Position numbers and translations under genes: made by a program
Shown here: in pieces, positions 52,537-64,000 of the stretch
Layout: every line of letters starts with the position of its first letter
How positions within the stretch are numbered: position 1 is the stretch's first letter
The notes under the pieces: model-generated
What the model saw: only the letters and a program-made list of their open reading frames with translations
Told to the model about the DNA's origin: nothing
The model's database searches: none
Assembly: GCA_044866005.1 (NCBI GenBank)
Contig: JBIOTN010000067.1
Span: 15,068-79,067, forward strand
DNA from: Candidatus Rokuibacteriota bacterium
GTDB lineage: Bacteria; Methylomirabilota; Methylomirabilia; Rokubacteriales; DASRDR01
Reading direction: 5' to 3'
Length of the DNA: 64,000 nucleotides

Positions 52537-53940
52537 ATGGCGAAAACCTATCCGGTGTTGTCCTGGCCCGCCGTACCGACGCCGACCCCCGACGACGTCT
52601 ACAAGGGGGAGAGCGACAAGGCGAAGGAGTACGCCCTGTGGCTGGAGGACAACCTCCGCCAGAGCAAGAACTTCGAGAAGCCCGAGGCGCTCAACAACAT
52701 CCGCGTCCTGGACTGCACTTCCACGATGATCATCGGCCACTGGTGCTCGTCGCTCTTCGCCGAGCTGGGGGCCGAGGTGATCATGGTCGAGCCGCCCGGT
52801 GGGGATCCTCTCCGCAAGCTCACCCCCTTCGGCCGGAAGGAGTACATGTTCAAGGACACCGCCAGCGGTGAGGAGGTGGGTGCGCGCTTCCTCGCGGAGG
52901 CCCGCAGCAAGCAGTCGATCACGCTGGACGTGGCCAAGCCAGACGGGCGCGAGATCCTCAAGAAGCTCGCCGCCCACGCCGACGTGATCATCGAGAACGC
53001 GCCCCCGGGGCAGTGGGACGAGTGGGGGATCGGTTATCGCCAGCTTTCCCAGATCAACCCCCGCCTGGTCTACTGCTGGGTCGGGCAGCTCGGCCAGTGG
53101 GGGCCGCTGAAGGACAAGCCCGGCAATCTCGACCCCACCGCCCAGGCCGCCTGCGGCTTCGTTCACGGGACCGGCGCGCCCGTCGCGTTCGGGGGCACCC
53201 CCACCCGCTCCGGCTGGTGGATGTGCGACCAGGTCGGCGGAACCGGCGCGGCGATCGGGATCATGACCGCGCTCAACTACCGGGAGAAGGTCTCGGGCCG
53301 CGGCCAGTTCGTCGAGGCGACCGGCGCCGCGGGCGTCATCCGCATCCTGGACTACAACTGGGGCTGGTACGGGATCGACGGCAGCATCCGGCCCCGGTAC
53401 GGCAACTGGGACCTCGCCATCTGCATCTACGCCGTGAACCCCTGCAAGGACGGCCAGATCATGGTGGGCGGCGGCCATGACCGGCTCTGGTATCGGATCT
53501 GGCGGACGGCGGGGAAGGATCGGCCGGAGATCGAGCAGCACATCGTCGAAGACCCGAAGATGAAAGAGGTGACCAACCGGCTGCCGCACTACGCGCAAGT
53601 GGAGACCTACACCTCGCTCTGCGAGTGGATGAAGGACAACACCCGGTCCGAGGCCGAGACCAAGCTCCAGGCCGAAGAGGTGGCGTCGGGCGGCGTGTCC
53701 TTCATCGACGAGGTCTCCGAGTTTCCCCACTACAAGTACCGGGGCCACCTGGAGGTCATCGACGACGTCTTCTACGGGAAGGTTCTGATCGGGGCCTCTG
53801 CCTTCATCGGCCAGCGGACGCCGGGCCGGGTGAAGTGGATCGGCCGCCCGACGGGGCACGACAACGAGGACGTCTACCGCCGGCTCCTGGGCTTCACCAA
53901 GGCGGAGATGGACGGGCTCAAGCAGAAAGGGGTGGTCTGA
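52537..53940 (+). CDS. Family III (CaiB/BaiF) CoA transferase, subunit A
   Basis: IRVLD, AELGAEVIMVEPPGGDPLR, KQSITLD and INPRLVY motifs. Confidence 0.9.
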   Translation: MAKTYPVLSWPAVPTPTPDDVYKGESDKAKEYALWLEDNLRQSKNFEKPEALNNIRVLDCTSTMIIGHWCSSLFAELGAEVIMVEPPGGDPLRKLTPFGRKEYMFKDTASGEEVGARFLAEARSKQSITLDVAKPDGREILKKLAAHADVIIENAPPGQWDEWGIGYRQLSQINPRLVYCWVGQLGQWGPLKDKPGNLDPTAQAACGFVHGTGAPVAFGGTPTRSGWWMCDQVGGTGAAIGIMTALNYREKVSGRGQFVEATGAAGVIRILDYNWGWYGIDGSIRPRYGNWDLAICIYAVNPCKDGQIMVGGGHDRLWYRIWRTAGKDRPEIEQHIVEDPKMKEVTNRLPHYAQVETYTSLCEWMKDNTRSEAETKLQAEEVASGGVSFIDEVSEFPHYKYRGHLEVIDDVFYGKVLIGASAFIGQRTPGRVKWIGRPTGHDNEDVYRRLLGFTKAEMDGLKQKGVV

Positions 53941-55286
53941 TGGCCGAGACCCTGAGCTTCGAAGAGTTCTGTCGAGACGTCTTTGACCCGAAGAAGATCT
54001 TCTCGAAGCCGGAGCCGCTGAAGGGCACCAGGTTCCTCAGCTGCACCCAGTACATCCTCGGCCCGTCGTGCGCGAACTACCTGGCGGAGCTGGGGGCCGA
54101 GGTGATCAAGATCGAGCTGCCCCGCCGGGGCGAGCCGATGCGCCACACCACGCCCTTCAACGAGCCCAAGCTCTACCCGCTGTCGAAGTGGATGCCCGAG
54201 ATGGGCACGGGGCTCGGCTTCTATGGCGCCAACCACAACGAGTACTTCCTTTCGGTGGACTTCCACAAGCCGGAGGGGCAAGAGATCGTCCGGATGCTGG
54301 CGGCGAAGTGCGACGGTGTCGTGGAGAACTACCGCGCCGGCACCTTCGACCGGTGGGGGATCGGCTACCGCCAGCTGAGCCAGATCAACCCGCGGATCAT
54401 CTACCAGTGGCTGGGGGGGTTCGGCGGCTGGGGCCCCGGCCGGAAACGGGCGAGCTACGACATCCTGGGTCAGGCCCAGGGCGGCTGCTTCTCGGTGACC
54501 GGCTGGCCGCTGGACAAGGGCGGCCTACCCGCCAAGCAGACGATCTGGATCATGGATTACTGGGGCGGGATGATGGGCGCCTTTCAGATCCTCGCGTGCA
54601 TGTACTGGCGCGACAACTTCTCCGGCCTCGGCAACTTCATGGAGTACTCCCAGGTGCAGGGCGCCCAGCGCCATCTCTCCGACTGCATCGCGCTCTACGG
54701 GCGGTACGGGCTTGTGCCCCAGCGCTGGGGGAACTGGGACGTGCTCCTCTCCGTCCACGGGATCATCAAGTGCGGCAAGTCCTCCTACCCCGACTCGAAG
54801 AACCCGCAGGAGCTGGAGGAGGGGTACATCCTGGTCAGCGCGTACAAGGATGCTGACTTCGCCAAGCTGATGCGGCTCATCAAGCGGGACGAGCTGGCGA
54901 AGAAGTACGCCGCCCACGACGAGCGGGTGAAGGCGGAGAGCCAGTACGAGATCTACCCCGCCATCGAGGCCTGGGCCAAGGACAAGACCAAGGAGCAGGT
55001 CCGCGACATCCTCACGAAGGAGGGGATCAACAACCAGCCGGTCTGGAACTCGAAGGAGGTGTCGACCCAGGAGCACTTCCACCTCCGCGGGGAGCTGGAG
55101 TGGCTGGACGATCCGACTTTCGGGGAGGTCCAGAGCCAGGGACCGGCCTTCCACCTCTCCGAGACACCGGCGCGCCACAAGTGGACGCTCAAGCCGGTGG
55201 GCGCGGACAACGAATACATCCTCGGCAAGCTCTGCGGCTTCTCGAAGACCAAGCTCGCGGAGCTCGAAGCGGACGCGATCATCTGA
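53940..55286 (+). CDS. Family III (CaiB/BaiF) CoA transferase, subunit B
   Basis: LAELGAEVIKIE, VENYRAG, INPRIIY and YDILGQA motifs; ATG overlaps the upstream stop. Confidence 0.9.
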   Translation: MAETLSFEEFCRDVFDPKKIFSKPEPLKGTRFLSCTQYILGPSCANYLAELGAEVIKIELPRRGEPMRHTTPFNEPKLYPLSKWMPEMGTGLGFYGANHNEYFLSVDFHKPEGQEIVRMLAAKCDGVVENYRAGTFDRWGIGYRQLSQINPRIIYQWLGGFGGWGPGRKRASYDILGQAQGGCFSVTGWPLDKGGLPAKQTIWIMDYWGGMMGAFQILACMYWRDNFSGLGNFMEYSQVQGAQRHLSDCIALYGRYGLVPQRWGNWDVLLSVHGIIKCGKSSYPDSKNPQELEEGYILVSAYKDADFAKLMRLIKRDELAKKYAAHDERVKAESQYEIYPAIEAWAKDKTKEQVRDILTKEGINNQPVWNSKEVSTQEHFHLRGELEWLDDPTFGEVQSQGPAFHLSETPARHKWTLKPVGADNEYILGKLCGFSKTKLAELEADAII

Positions 55287-56258: not shown

Positions 56259-56633
56259 ATGAAAGTCGAGTTTTACTACAGCAGTAAACAGCAACCGGGG
56301 CCTCAGTTCCGCTGTGACAATCAAAAGGCCCTCGAGCTCTTGAAGCAGCTCGAGAAGAAAGGGGTGAACGTCAAGATCCAGGACACCGCAGAGCAGCCGG
56401 CCGCCTTCATGACCTACAACGCCGCGGTGACCGGTCCCCCCTCGGCGAAGCGCTCGGTCTTCGGGGCCAAGGGCGCGCTGGAGGAGGATTTCGGCAAGAC
56501 GGTCCCCGCTCTCCTCGTCTTCGACAAGGAAGGCGAACGCTACCCCTCCGAGGTCTTCCCGCGGACGGATCGGGAGCTAGACCGCCTGGTGGGGATCGAG
56601 GAGGCGCTGCAGAATCTCGTCAAGACGGGCTGA
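56259..56633 (+). CDS. Hypothetical protein (thioredoxin-fold-like)
   Basis: RBS GGAGGAG; MKVEFYYS...VPALLV; fold assignment is a guess. Confidence 0.65.
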   Translation: MKVEFYYSSKQQPGPQFRCDNQKALELLKQLEKKGVNVKIQDTAEQPAAFMTYNAAVTGPPSAKRSVFGAKGALEEDFGKTVPALLVFDKEGERYPSEVFPRTDRELDRLVGIEEALQNLVKTG

Positions 56634-56738
56634 GTCTTCGGAGGGGGGCGCGGCCCTCTCCGAGCTTCCCCCAGGCGCGCGGGCGAGGCCCGCGCCCGGA
56701 CTCGCCCGATCGGCGGGGCGCGCCCCCGGGGACGGCAC

Positions 56739-56984
56739 ATGGTCTGTCGGCGGTGCGGGAATGGCGTGGTGGAGCGATTCCACCGCGTGGACAGCTTCGA
56801 GCGGATTTCTCTGGCCGATGACCCCGCCGACCCCAACGGCGGCCACTACTACATCGACCTGGTCTACGTGATGCGTTGCTCCGCCTGCGGCCACCGTCAG
56901 GAGCAGGTGGCGAAGCGGTCTCCGTTTCCGACGTTGAAGGAAGCGCAGAAGGAGCTGGAAAGCCACATCATCGGCAAGGGCTGA
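56739..56984 (+). CDS. Small zinc-ribbon-like protein
   Basis: CRRC...CSACG. Confidence 0.65.
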   Translation: MVCRRCGNGVVERFHRVDSFERISLADDPADPNGGHYYIDLVYVMRCSACGHRQEQVAKRSPFPTLKEAQKELESHIIGKG

Positions 56985-57020
56985 TCTGCATATACAAGGG
57001 GCCCCGGCCGCCCCCCCCTC

Positions 57021-58028
57021 TCAGCTCCCCGAGCCCGACGGGCGGTGGTCCCGCTGGGCGTCCAGCTTCTGCCGGATCCGGCCGAAGGTCTGGAGGTCCT
57101 GCCGGAGGTCGGGGTGGCCGATCCGCTTGTCGATGGCGATGACCTCCTCCATGAGGCGAAGGGCGTCCCGGTACTCCCCCCGCTCCTCGTGGATCAGGGC
57201 CATGTTGTGGACGGGGATGGTGGCCCGGAGGAGATCACCCGACGCCTCGATCAGGCTCCGGGCCCTCGCATAGCGCTGGTAGGCCCCCTCCAGGTCCCCC
57301 AGTCGGCGCTGAACGAGGCCGAGGCTGTTCAAGGTGACCGCCATGGCCGTCGTGTCTTCCGCCTTCTCGTGGAGCGTGAGGGCTTGCTCGAGGGCCGGAA
57401 GGGCCTCGTGCCACCGCTCCGCGCGCATGTGGAGGCCTCCGATGTTCGCTAGCGTGACCGCGCGCCCGCGCGCGTCTCCGAGCCGCTCCTGCAGCTCGAG
57501 ACTCTTCTCGAAGGCCGCCATCGCTCCCGAGAGATCGCCCATCCGTGCCTTCACGGTTCCGATGTTGTTCCACGCCAGCGTGATCCCCGCCTGGTCGCCC
57601 AGCTCCGTTTTCAGCCGGAGGCTCTCGTCGTAGGCCTCGAGCGCCCTGCGGAAGTCCCTCTTCCCCTGGGAGGCCTCGGCGATCCCGCCGAGGGTGACCG
57701 CGGCGCCGGTCCTGTCCCCGGCCTCGTTGTGCAGGCCGAGCGCCCGGTGGTACAGCTCGAGCGCCCGGTCCCATCCCCCTTGCAAGCAGTAGAGCATGCC
57801 CAGGCGGTGAAGAGCGGGAGCCATCCCTTGCTGGTCCGTCGCCGTGGCGGCGATCTGGTAGGCCTCATCCAGCGCGCCTCGGGCCCCGCTCTCGTCGTTC
57901 AGCTCGCGCAGGAGGGCCGCGAGCCTCGACAGCGTATCCAGGAGCCCGGCCCAGTTCCCTGCCGCCTCCTGCGCCCGGGCTTGGGCCGCCAGCGTGTCCG
58001 CGGCCTCCCGGGGAGTCTGCTCGGCCAT
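57021..58028 (-). CDS. Tetratricopeptide repeat protein
   Basis: Repeated A..LNNIG..Y..A...Y..SL units of ~40 aa. Confidence 0.88.
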   Translation of the reverse strand: MAEQTPREAADTLAAQARAQEAAGNWAGLLDTLSRLAALLRELNDESGARGALDEAYQIAATATDQQGMAPALHRLGMLYCLQGGWDRALELYHRALGLHNEAGDRTGAAVTLGGIAEASQGKRDFRRALEAYDESLRLKTELGDQAGITLAWNNIGTVKARMGDLSGAMAAFEKSLELQERLGDARGRAVTLANIGGLHMRAERWHEALPALEQALTLHEKAEDTTAMAVTLNSLGLVQRRLGDLEGAYQRYARARSLIEASGDLLRATIPVHNMALIHEERGEYRDALRLMEEVIAIDKRIGHPDLRQDLQTFGRIRQKLDAQRDHRPSGSGS

Positions 58029-59386
58029 CAGGACCCCGGCTCGGGCGCCGGGCCGAATCCGAGGCCGCGCCCGATGATCTCGCGGATCTCCGGGAACCGG
58101 CCCGGCCTCTCCCCCTCCGGCACCATCTCCTCGAGCTCGAGCATCATCCGGCTCACCTGACGGTTCAGGCTCTTGAGCTCGTCGAGGTTCCCCAGCTCCC
58201 GCATGCCGCGATCGAGGACCCGCTGGTAGACGGGCTCCTGGCTCAGGCCGATCTGGTAGGCGGGGTCGAACAGCAGCTCGTATCGCTCGGTGAGGAGAAG
58301 GCGCGCGAGGTGCCGGGCGGCCTGCAGGGGATCCATCGCCTCGTTGTCCGTTTCCAGGAGCATGAACTTGTCATTGAACGGGAGGAGTTTCCAGACGTCC
58401 GGGTTGATCCGTTCGTGCGCCCACAGGCGCCCCGAGCGGTACCGGAGAGCGAAGTCGCAGATGTTCCGGTCTCCGAGTCGCATGGACAGACGCGGCAACA
58501 GGGTCGCGAGAACCGCGGGGGGAATGTCGGCCAGGCTGCGATAGCTCGCCCGGATGGACTCCAGCGCGCGCCCCTGCTCCTCGAGACCCATGAGCTCCAC
58601 GAGGACGCGGAGCGACGTCCGGAGCTGCTGGAGGTTCATGCCTTCCACCGCGGCCGTGACCTGCGGATCGAGCACCTCGGGGAGCTGCGCCGGCGCTGCG
58701 GGCGGCCACCGCGCCATCCGCTCGCCGAAGAGAGGGTCGAAGGGCGGGGCGAAGCCCGCCGACCGGCCGATGGCCTCGCGGAGAGGCGCCAGCGCTGCCT
58801 CCACGGCCGGGGGGTCCCGGAGATCGAGGTCCCGGAGGGAGCCGAGGGCCCGTTCCTTCAGCAGCTCGATCGCACTGTCGCTCGCGCCTCGCAGCCGCTC
58901 CACGAGGTCGAGGTAGGCGTTGAACTCGACCGCCGCCTCGCCGAGGCCGGGGTCGTGGAAGAGGTCGAAGTTCAGGCACATGAAGAGCCTCGCCAGCTCG
59001 GTGCGAAGCTGGTGCGGCTGCAAGGCCGAGGCCTGCTCCTGTAGCAGGTCCCACTTCTCGGCCGCCGACATGGCCTGGAGCTCTTCGTCGGTCAGGTCCC
59101 GCAAGCTCCCTCCCGGCGCGAACCGCTTCGTCTCCAGCGCGTCCAGGGCATGCTGCGTGTAGTCCGCCACGAAATCCTGCACGACGTGCCGCATCTGGTG
59201 CAGTTCGAGATGCTCGCTGTACCGTGAGAGCATCTGCTTCTGCGCCGCTGGCGGGAGGCAGTCCCGGAGAACGCGAACGGTCCAGCGGAGGTCCGTCTCC
59301 GCCATGAACGGGATCCGCTCAGTCAGCTCTTCGGCCCGTCGCTCGACGTACCGGCGCTGCGGTGCGATCCGTGACTGCTCTTCCAT
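58028..59386 (-). CDS. Hypothetical protein with internal duplication
   Basis: Long ORF in operon; LRWTVRVL/LRTSLRVL and LARLF...LFHDP/LARLL...LLFDP repeats. Confidence 0.7.
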   Translation of the reverse strand: MEEQSRIAPQRRYVERRAEELTERIPFMAETDLRWTVRVLRDCLPPAAQKQMLSRYSEHLELHQMRHVVQDFVADYTQHALDALETKRFAPGGSLRDLTDEELQAMSAAEKWDLLQEQASALQPHQLRTELARLFMCLNFDLFHDPGLGEAAVEFNAYLDLVERLRGASDSAIELLKERALGSLRDLDLRDPPAVEAALAPLREAIGRSAGFAPPFDPLFGERMARWPPAAPAQLPEVLDPQVTAAVEGMNLQQLRTSLRVLVELMGLEEQGRALESIRASYRSLADIPPAVLATLLPRLSMRLGDRNICDFALRYRSGRLWAHERINPDVWKLLPFNDKFMLLETDNEAMDPLQAARHLARLLLTERYELLFDPAYQIGLSQEPVYQRVLDRGMRELGNLDELKSLNRQVSRMMLELEEMVPEGERPGRFPEIREIIGRGLGFGPAPEPGS

Positions 59387-59395
59387 CTCACGCGC

Positions 59396-59737
59396 TCAGG
59401 GAGAGTCGGGGCAGAAGATCGCCCACGGGAAGTTGTAGTAGTCCTCCCCCATCCACTCGTCGATGTGGACGCACGTCTCCCCGCGGTAGCCGAATTCGGT
59501 GTCGAACTCGTAGGCGACGATGACGCGCTCTTCTGAGTCGAAATAGCGGATTGCGAACCGATCGGAGCCGTCGACGTAGTGGGCGTCGATCGGCCGGATG
59601 TCGGCGTGGTCCATCCCCAGCAACCTGAGCAGCTGGTACAGGTCGTACCGCTGCCCCTCGATGGTGAGCTCGGTGAGACCCGTGCCGACCTCCCCGAACC
59701 GCTCTTCCATCCGCTTCCGTTCCTGCCCTACGGTCAT
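59396..59737 (-). CDS. Hypothetical acidic protein
   Basis: RBS GAGG before ATG; coherent sequence ending WAIFCPDSP. Confidence 0.65.
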   Translation of the reverse strand: MTVGQERKRMEERFGEVGTGLTELTIEGQRYDLYQLLRLLGMDHADIRPIDAHYVDGSDRFAIRYFDSEERVIVAYEFDTEFGYRGETCVHIDEWMGEDYYNFPWAIFCPDSP

Positions 59738-59781
59738 CTGCCTCTTCCTCCCTCTCGCCGGCTCGCCGCGCCCCTGACGGT

Positions 59782-61927
59782 TCAGTCGTGGAACGCCCGG
59801 TTGTTGCCGATGACGTCCAGGATCCGCTGGGCCGTGATTTCGTCCATGGGGTGATAGTCCCCGCCCATGGACACCGCCAGCTCTTCGGCGGGCGCGCAGA
59901 CGCGCCCGTCTGCCATCCGCCACCCCGGGCCCCCGGTTCCCAGCACGATGCTGCGGACCTTCTTGGCGCGGATGATCTGGCCGAGCAGGATGGCTTCGTG
60001 GCCGGGCCCGAGATTCCCCATCGCCACGTTGGCCCAGCCGTCGGTGATCAGGATCAGCACCGGGATGAGCTTCCGGTCCTTGCGGACCTCTTGCTGGATG
60101 AGCTCGTACGCGGTGAGGAGACCCCGGGACAGCGGGGTCGTGCCCCCGGTCGCCAGGGACTGGAAAGCGTTCTTGGCCAGCTCGATGCTGGACGTCGGCC
60201 GCAGGACGACGGCGGCCGACTCCTCCCGGAAGGTGACCAGGCCCACGCGGTCTCGCCGTTGGTAGGCGTCCACCAGCAGGGCGAGAATCGCCCCCCGAGT
60301 GGCGAGCAGGCGGCGCTGCGTCCCCATGGAGGCGCTGCAATCGACCACGAAGAGCAGCAGGTTCCCGACCGTGCGCTCCCGGACCTTGGCGTGCAGGTCC
60401 GAGGGCTCGACCCGGAGGGCCATCGCCTGCCGCTCTCGGTGCTGCTGCCGCGGCGCGGCCGCCCGGATCGTCGCGTCGAGCGCGATATCCCGGCCGAGGG
60501 CGCCGGCATGGCGGGCCCGAACGTAGCGGCCGCGGTTCGACGCCGTGCGGGCGGTGCTTCGCTTCCCGGACATCTCGCGGCGCTGCCGTTCCTTCCGCGG
60601 GCTCAGCAGACGGGGGTTGACGCCCTCGATCATCCGGTGGAGGAGGTCCTCGTCGAACTGGATCTGCCTCGCCGACGTCTCGCGGCTGTCCGGGCAGTCG
60701 TCCAGCCCGCAGTGACACACGCGCCCTGCACCCGCGCCGCCGCCCGGCCCGGCGGACCCGCCGGCCCCGCCGGATGCCTCCCCGGATCGCAGCTCCAGCC
60801 TCTCGCCGGCGGCGGACGGCGTGAGGGTGACGTCCCGACGCGCCCTCAGAGTGCCGGCGGTCGCGGGCGGCGAGGCCTCCGCGTCAAAGATGCCTCCCGT
60901 CCAGGAACTTCCCGGCCAGGCGATCCAGCGTCTTGGCGTCGAGGCTCGTCTCCTGGAAAGGCAGCCGCTTGAGGCGGTGTCGGAGGCTCAGCTCGATGAT
61001 GTCCCGGAAGTCGGCCGGCGCCGGCTCGCCCTGCCCTCGGAAGGCGGAGGCGGCCAGGCTGGCCTTGAGCATGGTGATCTCGGCCCGATGACCGTCCACC
61101 TTCATCTCTTCGGCCACCTCGGCGACGCGGCCCAGCAGGTCTTCCGAAGGGGTGAGGGTGGGAAGAAGCTCCCGGGCCCTCGCGATCTCGGACTGAAGAC
61201 GCTCCTGAGACGCCTGCCATTCCCCCCGGAACCGCTCGGTGTCGCTCTGAAAGGCGAGGGCCCGACTCGCGATCTCCTTGCGGTGCTCGCGGGACTGCTC
61301 GGTCTGGATCTCGACGCAGAGGCCGAACCGGTCCAGGAGCTGGGGTCTGAGCTCCCCCTCCTCGGGATTCATGGTTCCCACCAGGATGAACCGGCACGGA
61401 TGGGAATGGCTCACCCCTTCGCGCTCGACGAGGTTGATCCCCGTGACGGCGACGTCGAGGAGGAGGTCGACGATGTGATCGTCCAGCAGGTTCACCTCGT
61501 CGACATACAGGATCGCGCGGTTGGCCCGGGCCAGGATCCCGGGCTGGAAGGCCTTCTGGCCGCTCTTCAGCGCCGTCTCCAGATCGATGGACCCGACCAC
61601 TCGGTCTTCCGAGGCGTTCAGGGGGAGGTCCACGACCGGAGTGGACGCCTGGCAGAGCGGGAGCTCGTCTCCCCGCGCCACCTTTGCCTCACACTCCGCG
61701 CAGAGTCCCTCCTTCTGCCGCGGGTGGCAGGCGAACGGACAGCCCTCCACCACGAGGCGCGCCGGAAGGAGCTCCGCGATGCCCCGGACAGCGGTGGATT
61801 TGCCGGTGCCCTTCTGACCGCGGATCAGCACCCCGCCGATGGAGGGATCGATGGCGTTGTAGACGAGGGCCTTCTTCATCTTCTCCTGGCCGTAAATCGC
61901 GGAGAAGGGGAAGAGGGGTGGCTTCAC
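59782..61927 (-). CDS. ChlI/ChlD-like AAA+ ATPase (347 aa) joined to a vWA domain by a predicted +1 programmed frameshift (714-aa fusion)
   Basis: [24 protein letters not shown] and LLDRFG motifs; vWA DCSASM MIDAS, TTPL and ITDG; junction GGGAGG CAT CTT TGA C with the +1 frame open through a Gly-rich linker. Confidence 0.8.
60883..60898 (-). other. prfB-type +1 ribosomal frameshift cassette
   Basis: Minus strand reads GGGAGG-CAT-CTT-TGA-C: internal SD, 3-nt spacer, then CUU-UGA-C. Confidence 0.75.
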
Positions 61928-62473
61928 GGGTTCCTGGGCTCTCCCATCGCGAGGTGATCGGGAATGCCTGGATTCTAGCGGTTACCGGGGAACATCGTCA
62001 ACGGTCGGCAGGCGGAGGCGACGGGACGCGTGGCGCCGACGCCGGCCGCAGGCCGGCCTGCTCGGGCGCAGCTGCAGGGGCTTGACAAGGCCGGCCGGCG
62101 CGTGTTACTCGGGTCGCGGACCTCACCGGCCCTTGCGGGTTCGAGGCTTCCGAGGATCGCCCCATTTCTTCATGCGCCGTGCTGGTTGGAGAAGGCGCCG
62201 CTCGGTCCGGCCAGGACGGCCGTCCGGGCCGTTGGCTCGCCCGTGCTCGCGTGTGGTTCGGTCCCTCTTGGGTGCCCGGTTGACGGTATCAATGCGGGGT
62301 ACCCACTCGGCATCGAAGCAGCGGCGGCGCCCTCGCTCGGGCTGCCGCACGGCCCCGAAGGTGGTCATCCGCGTACGAGGAAACGGTACGAGCTCCCCAC
62401 GGGCGACGGTCGGGTCCGTTGGGAGCCTGACACCTTCGGAACGGTGGGGCGGCGACCCTAGAGGAGGGAGGAG

Positions 62474-63736
62474 ATGGCGGCAAACGTGACCGGAGAGACT
62501 CACATCAATCGGTGGTGGCGCGTCGTGGGCGGGCTCTCCATGAACCTCGCCCTCGGCTCGCTCTACGCGTGGAGCGTCTTCGTCGCGCCGCTCGAGAAGG
62601 ACTTCGGGTGGAAGCGGGCCGACACCTCCATGATCTTCACCATCGCAGTATTCGTGTTCGGGCTTGCGTTCATCCTCGCGGGGCGGCTCCAGGACAAGAA
62701 GGGACCGTTCTGGATCTCGGTCATCGGTGGCGTGCTGGTCAGCGTCGGGTTCTTCCTCAGCGCCTGGACCACGAGCCTCGCCTGGGTGTTCTTCTGGTTC
62801 GGCGCGATCGGTGGCATCGGCAACGGCTTCGGTTACGCGACGCCGATTCCGGTCATGGCCAAGTGGTTCCCCGATCGGCGAGGCCTCGCGGTCGGCCTCG
62901 CGGTCGCCGGCTATGGCGGCGGCTCGGCCATCTTCGGCCCGCTCGCCGGCAACTGGCTCATCCCAACCTACGGATGGCGGGCCACCTTCCAGGTCCTGGG
63001 GGTCATCTTCTTCGTCATGACGATAATCGGGGCCTTCCTGCTCAAGAACCCGCCGGTCGGCTACCGGCCGCCTGGCTGGGTGCCGGCCCCCGCGGCCAAG
63101 GCCGCGGCCACAACCTACGAGTTCAGCCCCGGCGAGGTGTTGAAGACGCCGACCTTCTACCTGATGTGGATCGCCTACTGCCTCGGCACCTCGGCGGGCC
63201 TCATGGTGATCAGCCAGCTCGTCCCGTTCGCGCGCAGCAGGGGCGTGCCGCTCGCGCTCGCCACCACAGCCATCTTCATCGGGGCTATCGGGAACGCCTC
63301 GGGCCGGATCTTCTCGGGCTGGATGTCCGACGCCATGGGGCGGCTGAACGTCCTGCGGCTGATGATCGCGGTCTCAGCCGTGGCCATGCCGATCCTGGCC
63401 CACACGGGCGGCGTTGCCGCTGTCCCCGTGTTCCTGTTCGTGATGGTGTTCATCGTCTACTACTGCTACGGCACCCAGCTCTCCGTGAATGCCTCGACGA
63501 CCTCGGACTTCTGGGGGACCAAGAACGCGGGCATCAACTACGGCCTGCTCTTCACGGCGTGGGGGGTGGCCGGCATCGTCGGTCCACGGATCGGCGGCCG
63601 GCTGTTCGATATCTACCAGAATTATCAGTACGCCTTTTACACGGCGGCGGTCCTGGCGGTGGTCGCGCTGGTCTGCGAGCTTCTGGCGCGGCGTCCCGCG
63701 GTGCCCGCGGGCGCGCCCGCGAAGGCGATGGCGTAG
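62474..63736 (+). CDS. OFA-family (OxlT-like) MFS transporter
   Basis: GSLYAWSVF, GRLQDKKGP, KWFPDRRGLA, GRIFSGWMSD and NYGLLF motifs. Confidence 0.9.
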   Translation: MAANVTGETHINRWWRVVGGLSMNLALGSLYAWSVFVAPLEKDFGWKRADTSMIFTIAVFVFGLAFILAGRLQDKKGPFWISVIGGVLVSVGFFLSAWTTSLAWVFFWFGAIGGIGNGFGYATPIPVMAKWFPDRRGLAVGLAVAGYGGGSAIFGPLAGNWLIPTYGWRATFQVLGVIFFVMTIIGAFLLKNPPVGYRPPGWVPAPAAKAAATTYEFSPGEVLKTPTFYLMWIAYCLGTSAGLMVISQLVPFARSRGVPLALATTAIFIGAIGNASGRIFSGWMSDAMGRLNVLRLMIAVSAVAMPILAHTGGVAAVPVFLFVMVFIVYYCYGTQLSVNASTTSDFWGTKNAGINYGLLFTAWGVAGIVGPRIGGRLFDIYQNYQYAFYTAAVLAVVALVCELLARRPAVPAGAPAKAMA

Positions 63737-64000
63737 CCCTTCGGTCAGGCGACGCGACGACCCCTGGCGCGCGCTGCCCTCCGTCCCGCCGTCGAGCTGC
63801 TCGGCGGGCGGAGGGCAGCCGCGTCAACCGGCTCTCGATCTCCAGACCCTCCGAGCTCTGTCGTTTCCGGAGAAGGCTTGCCGAACCTGCTGCACGAGTA
63901 GGGGGCCGTTGGAGTAATGCGAGTCGTACGGCATCTGATGCGATCCCTTCCGAGCGGCGGCTCCGCCGCCGCAACGAACGGGGGGGCCTCGGGGGGGTGT

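Follow-up and report, generated by a model that had tools for sequence, protein, structure and literature searches.

A putative RF2-type +1 frameshift cassette joins the ChlI-like and vWA halves of an AAA+ motor gene in Rokubacteria

Results

Organization of the locus

The window analysed here is a 64,000-nucleotide stretch from the genome of an uncultured soil bacterium of the Candidatus Rokuibacteriota (contig JBIOTN010000067.1, positions 15,068 to 79,067), and the features discussed below are collected in Table 1. ORF1 carries the Walker A motif GQKGTGKST, matches the Pfam families Mg_chelatase, AAA_5 and AAA_lid_2, and is matched in the PDB by ChlI (6l8d, E 1.6e-95). It covers positions 1-323 of the 337 in TIGR02030 (BchI-ChlI) with 406-409 bits, which is under the curated cut-off of 466.95. 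This zero-frame product ends in ...GRHL, followed by TGA. The +1 frame continues open for 367 codons past the shift, starting with DAEASPPA, and its vWA part matches the Pfam families VWA_2 and VWA and the vWA domain of BchD (2x31_A, E 4.8e-19). A preliminary description of the locus had claimed an open +1 frame leading into a vWA domain, and products of 347 and 714 aa. Both claims agree with our results, with a predicted 347 aa on termination and a predicted 347 + 367 = 714 aa on shifting.

Taken separately, the two ORFs cover positions 1-327 (ORF1) and 372-641 (ORF2) of the family TIGR02442. When they are joined by a single four-letter step at CTT-T, residues 6-695 of the 714-aa product cover positions 1-641 of 641 in one stretch, with a score of 697.3 bits that is below the curated cut-off of 779.45; the score for TIGR02031 is 400.2 against a cut-off of 499.55. 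The locus therefore has the make-up of an fs-chlD gene: it combines a ChlI-like AAA+ ORF with a vWA ORF in another frame, and the pair is collinear with fused proteins of the ChlD type. The first ATG, GTG or TTG in the +1 frame of the window is a GTG at 60720, 55 codons past the shift site, with no Shine-Dalgarno (SD)-like sequence ahead of it. One promoter-type site was found against 0.2 expected, and the interval from 56900 to 62500 contains no terminator-like site.

Table 1. Positions in the window of the features of the chelatase-like locus
Feature	Position	Strand	Basis
Candidate sigma-70-like promoter TTGACG-18-TAGAAT, 45 nt upstream of the GTG start	61972..62001	minus	consensus match only
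ORF1, ChlI-like AAA+ ATPase, 347 aa, GTG start	60884..61927	minus	ORF list, Pfam, TIGR02030
Internal Shine-Dalgarno-like block GGGAGG, 3 nt 5' of the shift codon	60893..60898	minus	sequence
Spacer CAT (60892..60890), CTT (60889..60887), TGA (60886..60884), C (60883)	60883..60892	minus	sequence
ORF2, linker then vWA domain, 367 codons and stop	59782..60885	minus, +1 frame	Pfam, TIGR02442
Linker motif C-H-C-G-L-D-D-C	60694..60717	minus	sequence
vWA domain with MIDAS-type motif DCSAS	about 59932..60357	minus	Pfam VWA_2, VWA
Conserved partner gene encoding 113 aa, without a known family	59396..59737	minus	conservation
Conserved partner gene encoding an all-helical protein of 452 aa, without a known family	58028..59386	minus	conservation
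Conserved partner gene for a 335-aa TPR protein, overlapping at its start with the 452-aa gene's stop	57021..58028	minus	TPR_12, E 7.7e-41

A prfB-like cassette at the ORF1/ORF2 junction

At the junction the minus strand reads GAC GGG AGG CAT CTT TGA CGC, with GGGAGG-CAT-CTT-TGA-C at 60898..60883. Two prfB-type features, a CUU directly 5' of an in-frame UGA and an SD-like block 3 nt 5' of the shift codon, are found both in the window and in all 43 distinct related loci described below. The prfB-like layout noticed earlier is indeed present, and it also equals that of the cassette in the host's own prfB (G000:C176), which reads CGGGGG CAC CTT TGA C. A prfB with CTT-TGA-C and an upstream G-rich block occurs in 6 of 6 genomes checked, and the host itself probably uses the RF2-type frameshift mechanism. 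The product encoded at the present locus is a ChlI/ChlD-like AAA+-vWA protein and not release factor 2. An alternation between GGAGG and GGGGG has been described for the SD block of prfB in the portion of that paper covered (PMC5009743), and the same alternation is seen here.

The whole 4.67-Mb genome contains 205 copies of CTTTGA on both strands, three of which have GG[AG]GG 2-5 nt upstream, namely the chelatase-like gene, prfB and one site that no ORFs surround. By our own estimate about five such sites would be expected, so that chance could account for the motif by itself genome-wide; what chance does not account for is its placement where the two halves of one protein family meet, together with its conservation. 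Only in prfB and the chelatase-like gene is the cassette flanked on either side by long ORFs. Leu is seldom encoded by CTT, which accounts for 12 of the 244 Leu codons in six local ORFs. No conserved RNA structure flanks the cassette (alifold 0.0 and -1.4 kcal/mol; single-sequence z-scores scatter near 0), and the sole output of an Rfam scan of 56500..64000 was a sub-threshold match to mir-762, which is taken as GC-rich noise.

Conservation of the cassette and of the +1 frame

The comparison set comprises 43 distinct related loci, 63-84% identical, from genomes and soil metagenomes. Conservation in orthologs, which the preliminary description had proposed as a check on the cassette, is complete for CTT-TGA (43 of 43). 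The G residues at -10, -8 and -7 are likewise invariant, G is present at -11 in 42 of the 43, and position -9 is always A or G. The SD hexamers are CGGAGG (16 loci), AGGAGG (12), CGGGGG (8), GGGAGG (6) and AAGAGG (1), and the spacer always has 3 nt (CAT in 34, CAC in 5, others in 4). After UGA, where a C makes for weak termination in prfB-type cassettes, the window has C, as do 36 of the related loci, and the other 7 have G. The full pattern RGGRGG-NNN-CTT-TGA is found in 14/14 genome-derived junctions, the cassette is present in 12 other genomes, and all 35 soil-metagenome loci of more than 60% identity that reach the end of ORF1 have it. The junction thus carries a conserved recoding signal, as fs-chlD genes do. 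Codons neighbouring the cassette vary freely, and invariant third codon positions number 0 in the 19 codons before it versus 3 in its 6. Since the SD block keeps its Gs although the residues that it encodes differ among loci (G/R/K, then R/G), the constraint on this block appears to act at the RNA level. Contigs (not raw reads) from four runs of two studies agree at the cassette.

Downstream of the cassette, the +1 ORF has at least 340 codons in 34 of the 35 relatives whose stop falls inside the locus. In L137 it has only 156 codons, with a stop no more than 15 nt from the contig end, and its twin locus L011 is intact. Neither a start codon nor a ribosome-binding site for the vWA part is conserved across the compared loci, and the preliminary description had likewise seen no convincing ribosome-binding site there; for example, spans free of start codons run from codon -11 to +72 in L010, from -73 to +91 in L100 and from -15 to +128 in L103. 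Directly after the stop, the linker has dN/dS values of 0.29-0.76 in the +1 frame in 9/9 pairs, versus values of at least 0.85 in 14 of 18 pairs for the other two frames (below 0.85 in 4 of 18), a modest contrast on short segments of 41-52 codons. Another strain has a 9-nt, frame-keeping insertion in the linker. ORF2 is, as judged from these sequences, probably translated from the shift site onward.

The linker also contains the Cys motif that the preliminary description had pointed out. Its Cys residues are C57, C59 and C64 of ORF2. Its clade consensus is C-x-C-x-x-D-x-C, mostly then P-H, and it is present in 39 of the 40 cassette-bearing loci that have at least 80 codons of +1 sequence. Among the loci used for the tree, 8 of the 10 with the cassette carry it, against none of the 80 in the other classes, which makes it real and clade-specific.

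Distribution of the cassette within the family

In the tree, the genes with the cassette group together as a clade (SH-aLRT 99, 10/10 rows). The cassette marks this single clade, of the Rokubacteria/Methylomirabilota class, and elsewhere the family is either fused in frame or joined by the published -1 slip on poly-A (fs-chlD). Homologues of 50-60% identity with an A9 run and a -1 shift were found at 30 loci, mostly from Chloroflexota. Two genomes of the same class with in-frame fused genes (G041 and G042, both 100% complete) gave no ChlI-like match other than the fused gene, and the separate chlI that might be expected there was not found. The long form alone may therefore suffice in these relatives; in that case the cassette could act chiefly as a regulatory gate that leaves the short protein as a by-product.

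Genomic context and partner genes

No match to the CobN/ChlH large subunit (PF02514) was found in the 94%-complete genome, nor in 5/5 genomes of relatives (94-98% complete), while the control search matched five named genomes. By this search the large substrate-binding subunit that goes with class I Mg/Co chelatases (ChlIDH/CobNST) was not found, and the non-tetrapyrrole context proposed earlier holds. According to the part of the article covered, fs-chlD genes have already been described in organisms without chlorophyll or B12 pathways (PMC9227772).

Three partner genes are private to the cassette clade. The 113-aa protein has no Pfam or NCBIfam match, and its model (pLDDT 81) gave no Foldseek match against the PDB at E<=0.001. 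The 452-aa protein has 232 homologues, all unnamed or 'hypothetical', with no match in Pfam or NCBIfam and no usable match in the ESM Atlas; its model (pLDDT 87) likewise found no PDB entry at E<=0.001 with Foldseek, and its best Z of 7.3 in a wide VIA-align search is within noise for helical proteins. Residues 1-105 of the latter gave several weak matches to DinB-like four-helix bundles, all under the noise level. The motor presumably serves these three conserved genes rather than a tetrapyrrole chelatase.

The preliminary description had further counted a third use of UGA, next to stop and selenocysteine. This is borne out only in part, by a tRNA-Sec gene in the genome.

Discussion

Proposed mechanism and alternatives

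It is highly likely that one gene is read here in two frames through a programmed, prfB-type +1 ribosomal frameshift, with a short ATPase and a long ATPase-plus-adaptor protein as its two very probable products. The signal is one that in bacteria normally serves the control of release factor 2 alone. Ribosomes translating the ChlI-like ORF would arrive with CUU in the P site and UGA in the A site, where GGGAGG would anneal to the anti-Shine-Dalgarno end of the 16S rRNA in the elongating ribosome and RF2 termination at UGA-C would be slow. In a fraction of ribosomes the tRNA-Leu would slip from CUU to UUU, GAC would be decoded next, and translation would run via a linker of 55-70 residues into the vWA domain. 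Termination would thus give the 347-aa ChlI-like ATPase and shifting a 714-aa ChlD-like AAA-linker-vWA protein with an identical N-terminal module, in a ratio that would depend on RF2 activity. We infer both the occurrence and the efficiency of the slip from sequence, and likewise that both products would be used, probably in one AAA+/vWA motor complex.

The locus could instead consist of two separate genes, with the AAA+ gene ending at UGA, the vWA gene starting independently or by re-initiation in the linker, and the G-rich block serving as a normal ribosome-binding site or arising by accident from the coding sequence. The GTG 55 codons past the stop would offer such a start, automated annotation yields two genes at loci of this type, as stated in the text covered of PMC3711429, and SD-like sequences near gene ends are described as common in operons in that of PMC5009743. 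However, the linker peptide and its Cys motif are conserved upstream of the possible starts, none of which is itself conserved, the +1-frame dN/dS is below 1 from the first codon past the stop, the GGAGG lies 1 nt before the sole near-cognate +1 codon (ATC) and so too close to serve it, and the invariance of CTT is left unexplained. We regard separate genes as quite improbable. A real frameshift could also act as a prfB-like regulatory gate in which only the long protein is functional and more of it is made at low RF2, the 347-aa protein being a by-product or degraded. The same-class genomes with an in-frame fusion and no separate ChlI-like gene speak for this possibility, as does the cassette itself, which is of the RF2-sensing type. 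It is nevertheless unlikely, as termination in the zero frame would leave a full ChlI-like module with Walker A and lid, whereas in prfB it leaves a peptide of ~25 residues. In addition, published fs-chlD genes are taken as makers of two subunits in the part of that study covered (PMC9227772), and I/D or S/T motors are built of a short and a long subunit according to solved structures and EM work, as described in the portion covered of a preprint (10.64898/2026.10.09.757910).

A pseudogene or a one-base sequencing or assembly error was rejected on the conservation in 43 of 43 loci and the agreement of four runs. Single-base frame changes are the commonest assembly error, but the same change at the same six bases recurs at 43/43 distinct loci in many assemblies, the runs come from two studies without a difference, and both halves are open and conserved, which leaves an error extremely improbable. 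Restoration of the frame by transcriptional slippage, UGA read-through or selenocysteine has an equally slight likelihood and was rejected on the frame-0 stops and the short run at the site. The organism does have tRNA-Sec, but read-through would stay in frame 0, which stops after 14 codons in L011, L012, L013 and L096 and contains no coding sequence for the vWA domain. As to slippage of the polymerase, the longest run at the site is TTT, and a run of this length is too short for it. Homopolymer slippage is known from the -1 poly-A fs-chlD relatives, as stated in the text covered of PMC3711429.

Significance

With the programmed frameshift as the preferred reading, the same two-product architecture would have been reached independently by a +1 slip here and by -1 poly-A slips or in-frame fusion in sister clades, and the gene family becomes a natural comparison set for asking why cells split or fuse I and D modules. 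The cassette would tie synthesis of the long subunit to RF2 activity and would report RF2 frameshifting outside prfB. Two-gene annotation of such loci hides the 714-aa product, and the conserved, family-less partner genes provide a handle on the role of 'orphan' ChlI/ChlD-like motors without CobN/ChlH.

Both the production of two chelatase-type subunits from one gene by frameshifting and the RF2 cassette itself have already been published; an RF2 cassette within a chelatase-like gene family is new as far as the literature covered extends. Within that literature nothing was found on prfB/RF2-type frameshifting in chelatase genes or in Rokubacteria. Antonov 2020 (MBE) reportedly lists +1 fs-chlD genes, among which the cassette may occur. 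We suggest tentatively, as a possibility somewhat short of an even chance, that a whole bacterial class has recruited the RF2 cassette, which the reviews covered treat as belonging to prfB, into a cellular operon. The balance of subunits in an orphan AAA+/vWA motor would then follow in trans from the cell's capacity to terminate at UGA, in organisms where UGA is read also as selenocysteine. Working with three private proteins that have no known fold (the 113-aa, 452-aa and TPR proteins) and a private Cys-rich linker motif, and not as a tetrapyrrole chelatase, this motor would be a new molecular machine.

Comparison with known systems

The cassette of prfB shares with the one described here the shift codon, the stop, the SD-like block (GGAGG or GGGGG), the 3-nt spacer and the +1 ORF2, and in both flanking RNA structure is neither needed nor found. 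In contrast to prfB, where the cassette sits after ~25 codons, it here ends a complete 347-aa domain ORF, and the zero-frame product is therefore probably functional. The gene does not encode RF2 either, so there is no closed autoregulatory loop and RF2 would act in trans; a further difference is the G after UGA in 7 of the 43 chelatase-like loci.

With fs-chlD genes the locus has in common a ChlI-like AAA+ ORF and a vWA ORF joined by a conserved frameshift, from which a small and a medium subunit are possible. The preliminary description had referred to reports of frameshifting in chlD-type genes, and these are indeed published; in the text covered, the signals are -1 slips on A-rich runs with downstream structure (PMC3711429, PMC9227772). 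The present locus, by contrast, would combine a +1 shift at a stop codon with an SD-like stimulator upstream and no structure, and the cassette clade is separate in the tree, with a linker motif and partner genes of its own. The main text covered mentions rarer +1 fs-chlD genes without describing their signals, and the supplement text gives -1 examples only, the +1 genes being coloured in its figure S3 (PMC9227772).

The in-frame fused ChlI-ChlD proteins of TIGR02442, 'putative cobaltochelatase', are matched end to end and collinearly, but at our locus a frame change is needed for this match, its score is under the cut-off, and CobN was not found in the genome. A further parallel is dnaX, where one gene yields through ribosomal frameshifting, with an internal SD stimulator, two proteins (tau and gamma) that share an N-terminal AAA+ module and both enter one complex. 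In dnaX a -1 slip gives the short form, whereas the +1 slip proposed here would give the long one.

Architecture of the gene

The two halves of the chelatase-like gene lie in different frames of the minus strand (see the table). ORF1, a ChlI-like AAA+ ATPase, matches the Pfam families Mg_chelatase, AAA_5 and AAA_lid_2 as well as TIGR02030 (positions 1-323 of 337), and Pfam and NCBIfam profiles place a vWA domain in ORF2. On TIGR02442, the 641-position model of the fused ChlI-ChlD-type family, ORF1 covers positions 1-327 and ORF2 positions 372-641. When one four-letter step is made at CTT-T, which occurs once in the gene, the resulting product gives a single match over positions 1-641 with 697 bits, a score under the curated cut-off of 779. 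The ORF reading and this collinear match bear out the preliminary description, both in its layout of the junction with a +1 frame open into the vWA domain and in its product sizes of 347 and 714 aa.

Features of the gene and its surroundings (window coordinates)
Feature	Position	Strand	Description
Frameshift junction		-	GAC GGG AGG CAT CTT TGA CGC
ORF1	60884..61927	-	347 codons, GTG start, stop is the cassette TGA
ORF2 (+1 frame)	60885 down to 59782	-	367 open codons, the first GAC
Linker motif	60694..60717	-	C-x-C-x-x-D-x-C, mostly followed by P-H
AAA+ module cysteines	61691..61741	-	C-x3-C...C-x2-C (GCPFAC...CAEC)
Three-gene tail	57021..59737	-	113-aa beta-rich, 452-aa all-helical and 335-aa TPR proteins
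Operon flanks	52537..55286 and 62474..63736	+	Two adjoining family-III CoA-transferase genes and an MFS transporter

RF2-type +1 ribosomal frameshifting is very probably the correct reading of this gene. A +1 slip would produce the ChlD-like long form and termination the ChlI-like short form, with one AAA+ module common to both.

Conservation of the cassette

The gene was found in 18 of the 251 genomes of the phylum; 13 have a +1 junction with RGGRGG-NNN-CTT-TGA, three are fused in frame and two are ended by the contig. Soil metagenomes returned 80 loci, 37 of them at >60% identity, and the cassette is present in all 35 of the latter that extend to the end of ORF1; the vWA domain follows in the +1 frame in 32, the remaining three being ended by the contig. 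Pooling gave 49 loci, 43 of them distinct (one, L098, is from a genome marked unpublished, and we make no claim on it alone). Conservation in orthologs, which the preliminary description had proposed as a check, is complete at CTT-TGA and at the Gs at -10, -8 and -7 (43/43 for each); the spacer is CAT in 34 loci, CAC in five and another triplet in four, and the base after TGA is C in 36 and G in seven. Among 14 genome-derived sequences, none of the 19 codons preceding the cassette has an invariant third position, against 3 of the 6 inside it, and the Gs of the G-rich block are constant while the encoded residues vary (G/R/K, then R/G). The genome has a G+C content of 72.6%, and CTT accounts for 12 of 244 Leu codons in six local ORFs. 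CTTTGA occurs 205 times in the whole genome, but with GG[AG]GG 2-5 nt upstream only three times: in this gene, in prfB and at one site without an ORF. One 2.4-Mb genome (G025) has two copies of the gene on separate contigs (L011 and L013), both with the cassette and each sharing about 77-78% identity with ORF1 of the window.

Alternative explanations

Contigs from four soil runs, belonging to two studies, cover 60600..61100, and the cassette is identical in all; since these runs possibly include the source sample, the comparative argument counts as the stronger. A sequencing error or a pseudogene fits the data poorly and is extremely improbable. A contig of a soil run from the second study represents a strain variant, whose Gly-rich linker has a 9-nt insertion at 60756 that leaves the +1 frame intact. 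Of the 35 loci with the +1 stop inside the locus, 34 have a +1 ORF of 340 codons or more; the exception, L137, has its +1 stop <15 nt from the contig end, and its twin locus L011 is intact. The preliminary description saw no convincing RBS for the vWA part, and no start codon for ORF2 is conserved across the compared loci. Stretches free of start codons extend from codon -11 to +72 in L010, -73 to +91 in L100 and -15 to +128 in L103, and the linker peptide and its Cys motif upstream of these limits are still conserved. Over the first 41-52 linker codons, dN/dS (Nei-Gojobori) ranges from 0.29 to 0.76 for all 9 pairs read in the +1 frame and reaches at least 0.85 for 14 of the 18 pairs in the other two frames, a modest but consistent contrast. 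Independent initiation of the vWA part is a poor fit to these data and quite unlikely. In four relatives, frame 0 is closed by a stop 14 codons past the TGA, so neither read-through nor selenocysteine could lead to the vWA domain; a read-through or RNA-level route fits poorly and deserves hardly any credence.

The short and long forms may both be needed. Against this stand two relatives, G041:C8 (L105/L203) and G042:C75 (L106/L204), in which an in-frame fused 667-aa gene is the only ChlI-like match; both genomes are 100% complete and of the window's class, and neither yielded a separate ChlI-like gene, an outcome that speaks against a need for both forms. Because of these two genomes, there is some probability, albeit a small one, that the shift serves regulation alone.

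Place in the family and genomic context

A one-genome-per-species scan gave 79 loci and, together with those of the phylum, 90 AAA+ parts were classified and placed in a tree (a quick IQ-TREE run without bootstrap, omitting L098, L013 and fragments). Thirty have an A-run at the junction with a -1 shift (mostly Chloroflexota; the published type of frameshifted chlD), 27 are fused in frame, 11 have separate chlI and chlD genes, ten have the CTT-TGA cassette, nine have no vWA nearby and three are odd cases. All ten cassette members fall in one clade (SH-aLRT 99), for which, judging by the tree, a single origin of the cassette would suffice. The nearest named record in the scan is a Candidatus Rokuibacteriota MAG. 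The distribution of the gene is patchy: in the family to which the window belongs, only one of 20 other genomes has it, although within the class it is conserved in several families. At L056 (uncultured Chloroflexia), an A9 run lies at the junction, but it is the +1 frame, not the -1 frame, that gives the best vWA match; this frame call is unsure because the match begins late, at query residue 134. The cysteine pattern of the AAA+ module is shared by 89 of the 90 family members, whatever the junction type.

The linker Cys motif, a possible metal site, is present in 39 of 40 cassette loci (the exception is L154/L102); of the 90 loci in the tree, the 80 belonging to other junction classes all lack it. 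CobN/ChlH (PF02514) has no match in the window's genome (94% complete) or in five relatives. The three downstream genes are conserved in all five relatives with downstream DNA and, among all fetched loci, are confined to those of the cassette clade. Neither the 113-aa nor the 452-aa partner has a family or solved-fold match, and the 232 homologues of the latter are all unnamed or 'hypothetical'. A promoter-like site lies 45 nt upstream of the GTG start codon; the operon itself contains no terminator-like site. The flanking MFS gene adjoins the operon in two further genomes (G006 and G022) as well.

Comparison with known frameshifting systems

Published chlD-type frameshifting includes -1 shifts on A-rich runs, with up to 63% in E. 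coli tests (PMC3711429). According to Kuznetsov et al. 2022 (PMC9227772), frameshifted chlD genes more often have -1 than +1 shifts and also occur in organisms that lack a pathway for chlorophyll or B12. In the literature searched, which does not take in the +1 cases of Antonov 2020, no chlD-type gene is described with a CTT-TGA cassette. In the prfB gene of the window's genome the cassette is CGGGGG CAC CTT TGA C and the +1 frame holds the RF2 body; five relatives bearing the chelatase-like cassette likewise have a CTT-TGA-C site in prfB. The window's genome also encodes a tRNA-Sec with the anticodon tca. No conserved RNA structure was found flanking the chelatase-like cassette, as expected for a cassette of the prfB type. 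The prfB cassette is described as CUU_U before UGA, nearly always with C next, and its SD-like stimulator as GG_GGG, sometimes GG_AGG (Atkins et al. 2016, PMC5009743); the same alternation of GG_GGG and GG_AGG is present among the chelatase-like cassette loci.
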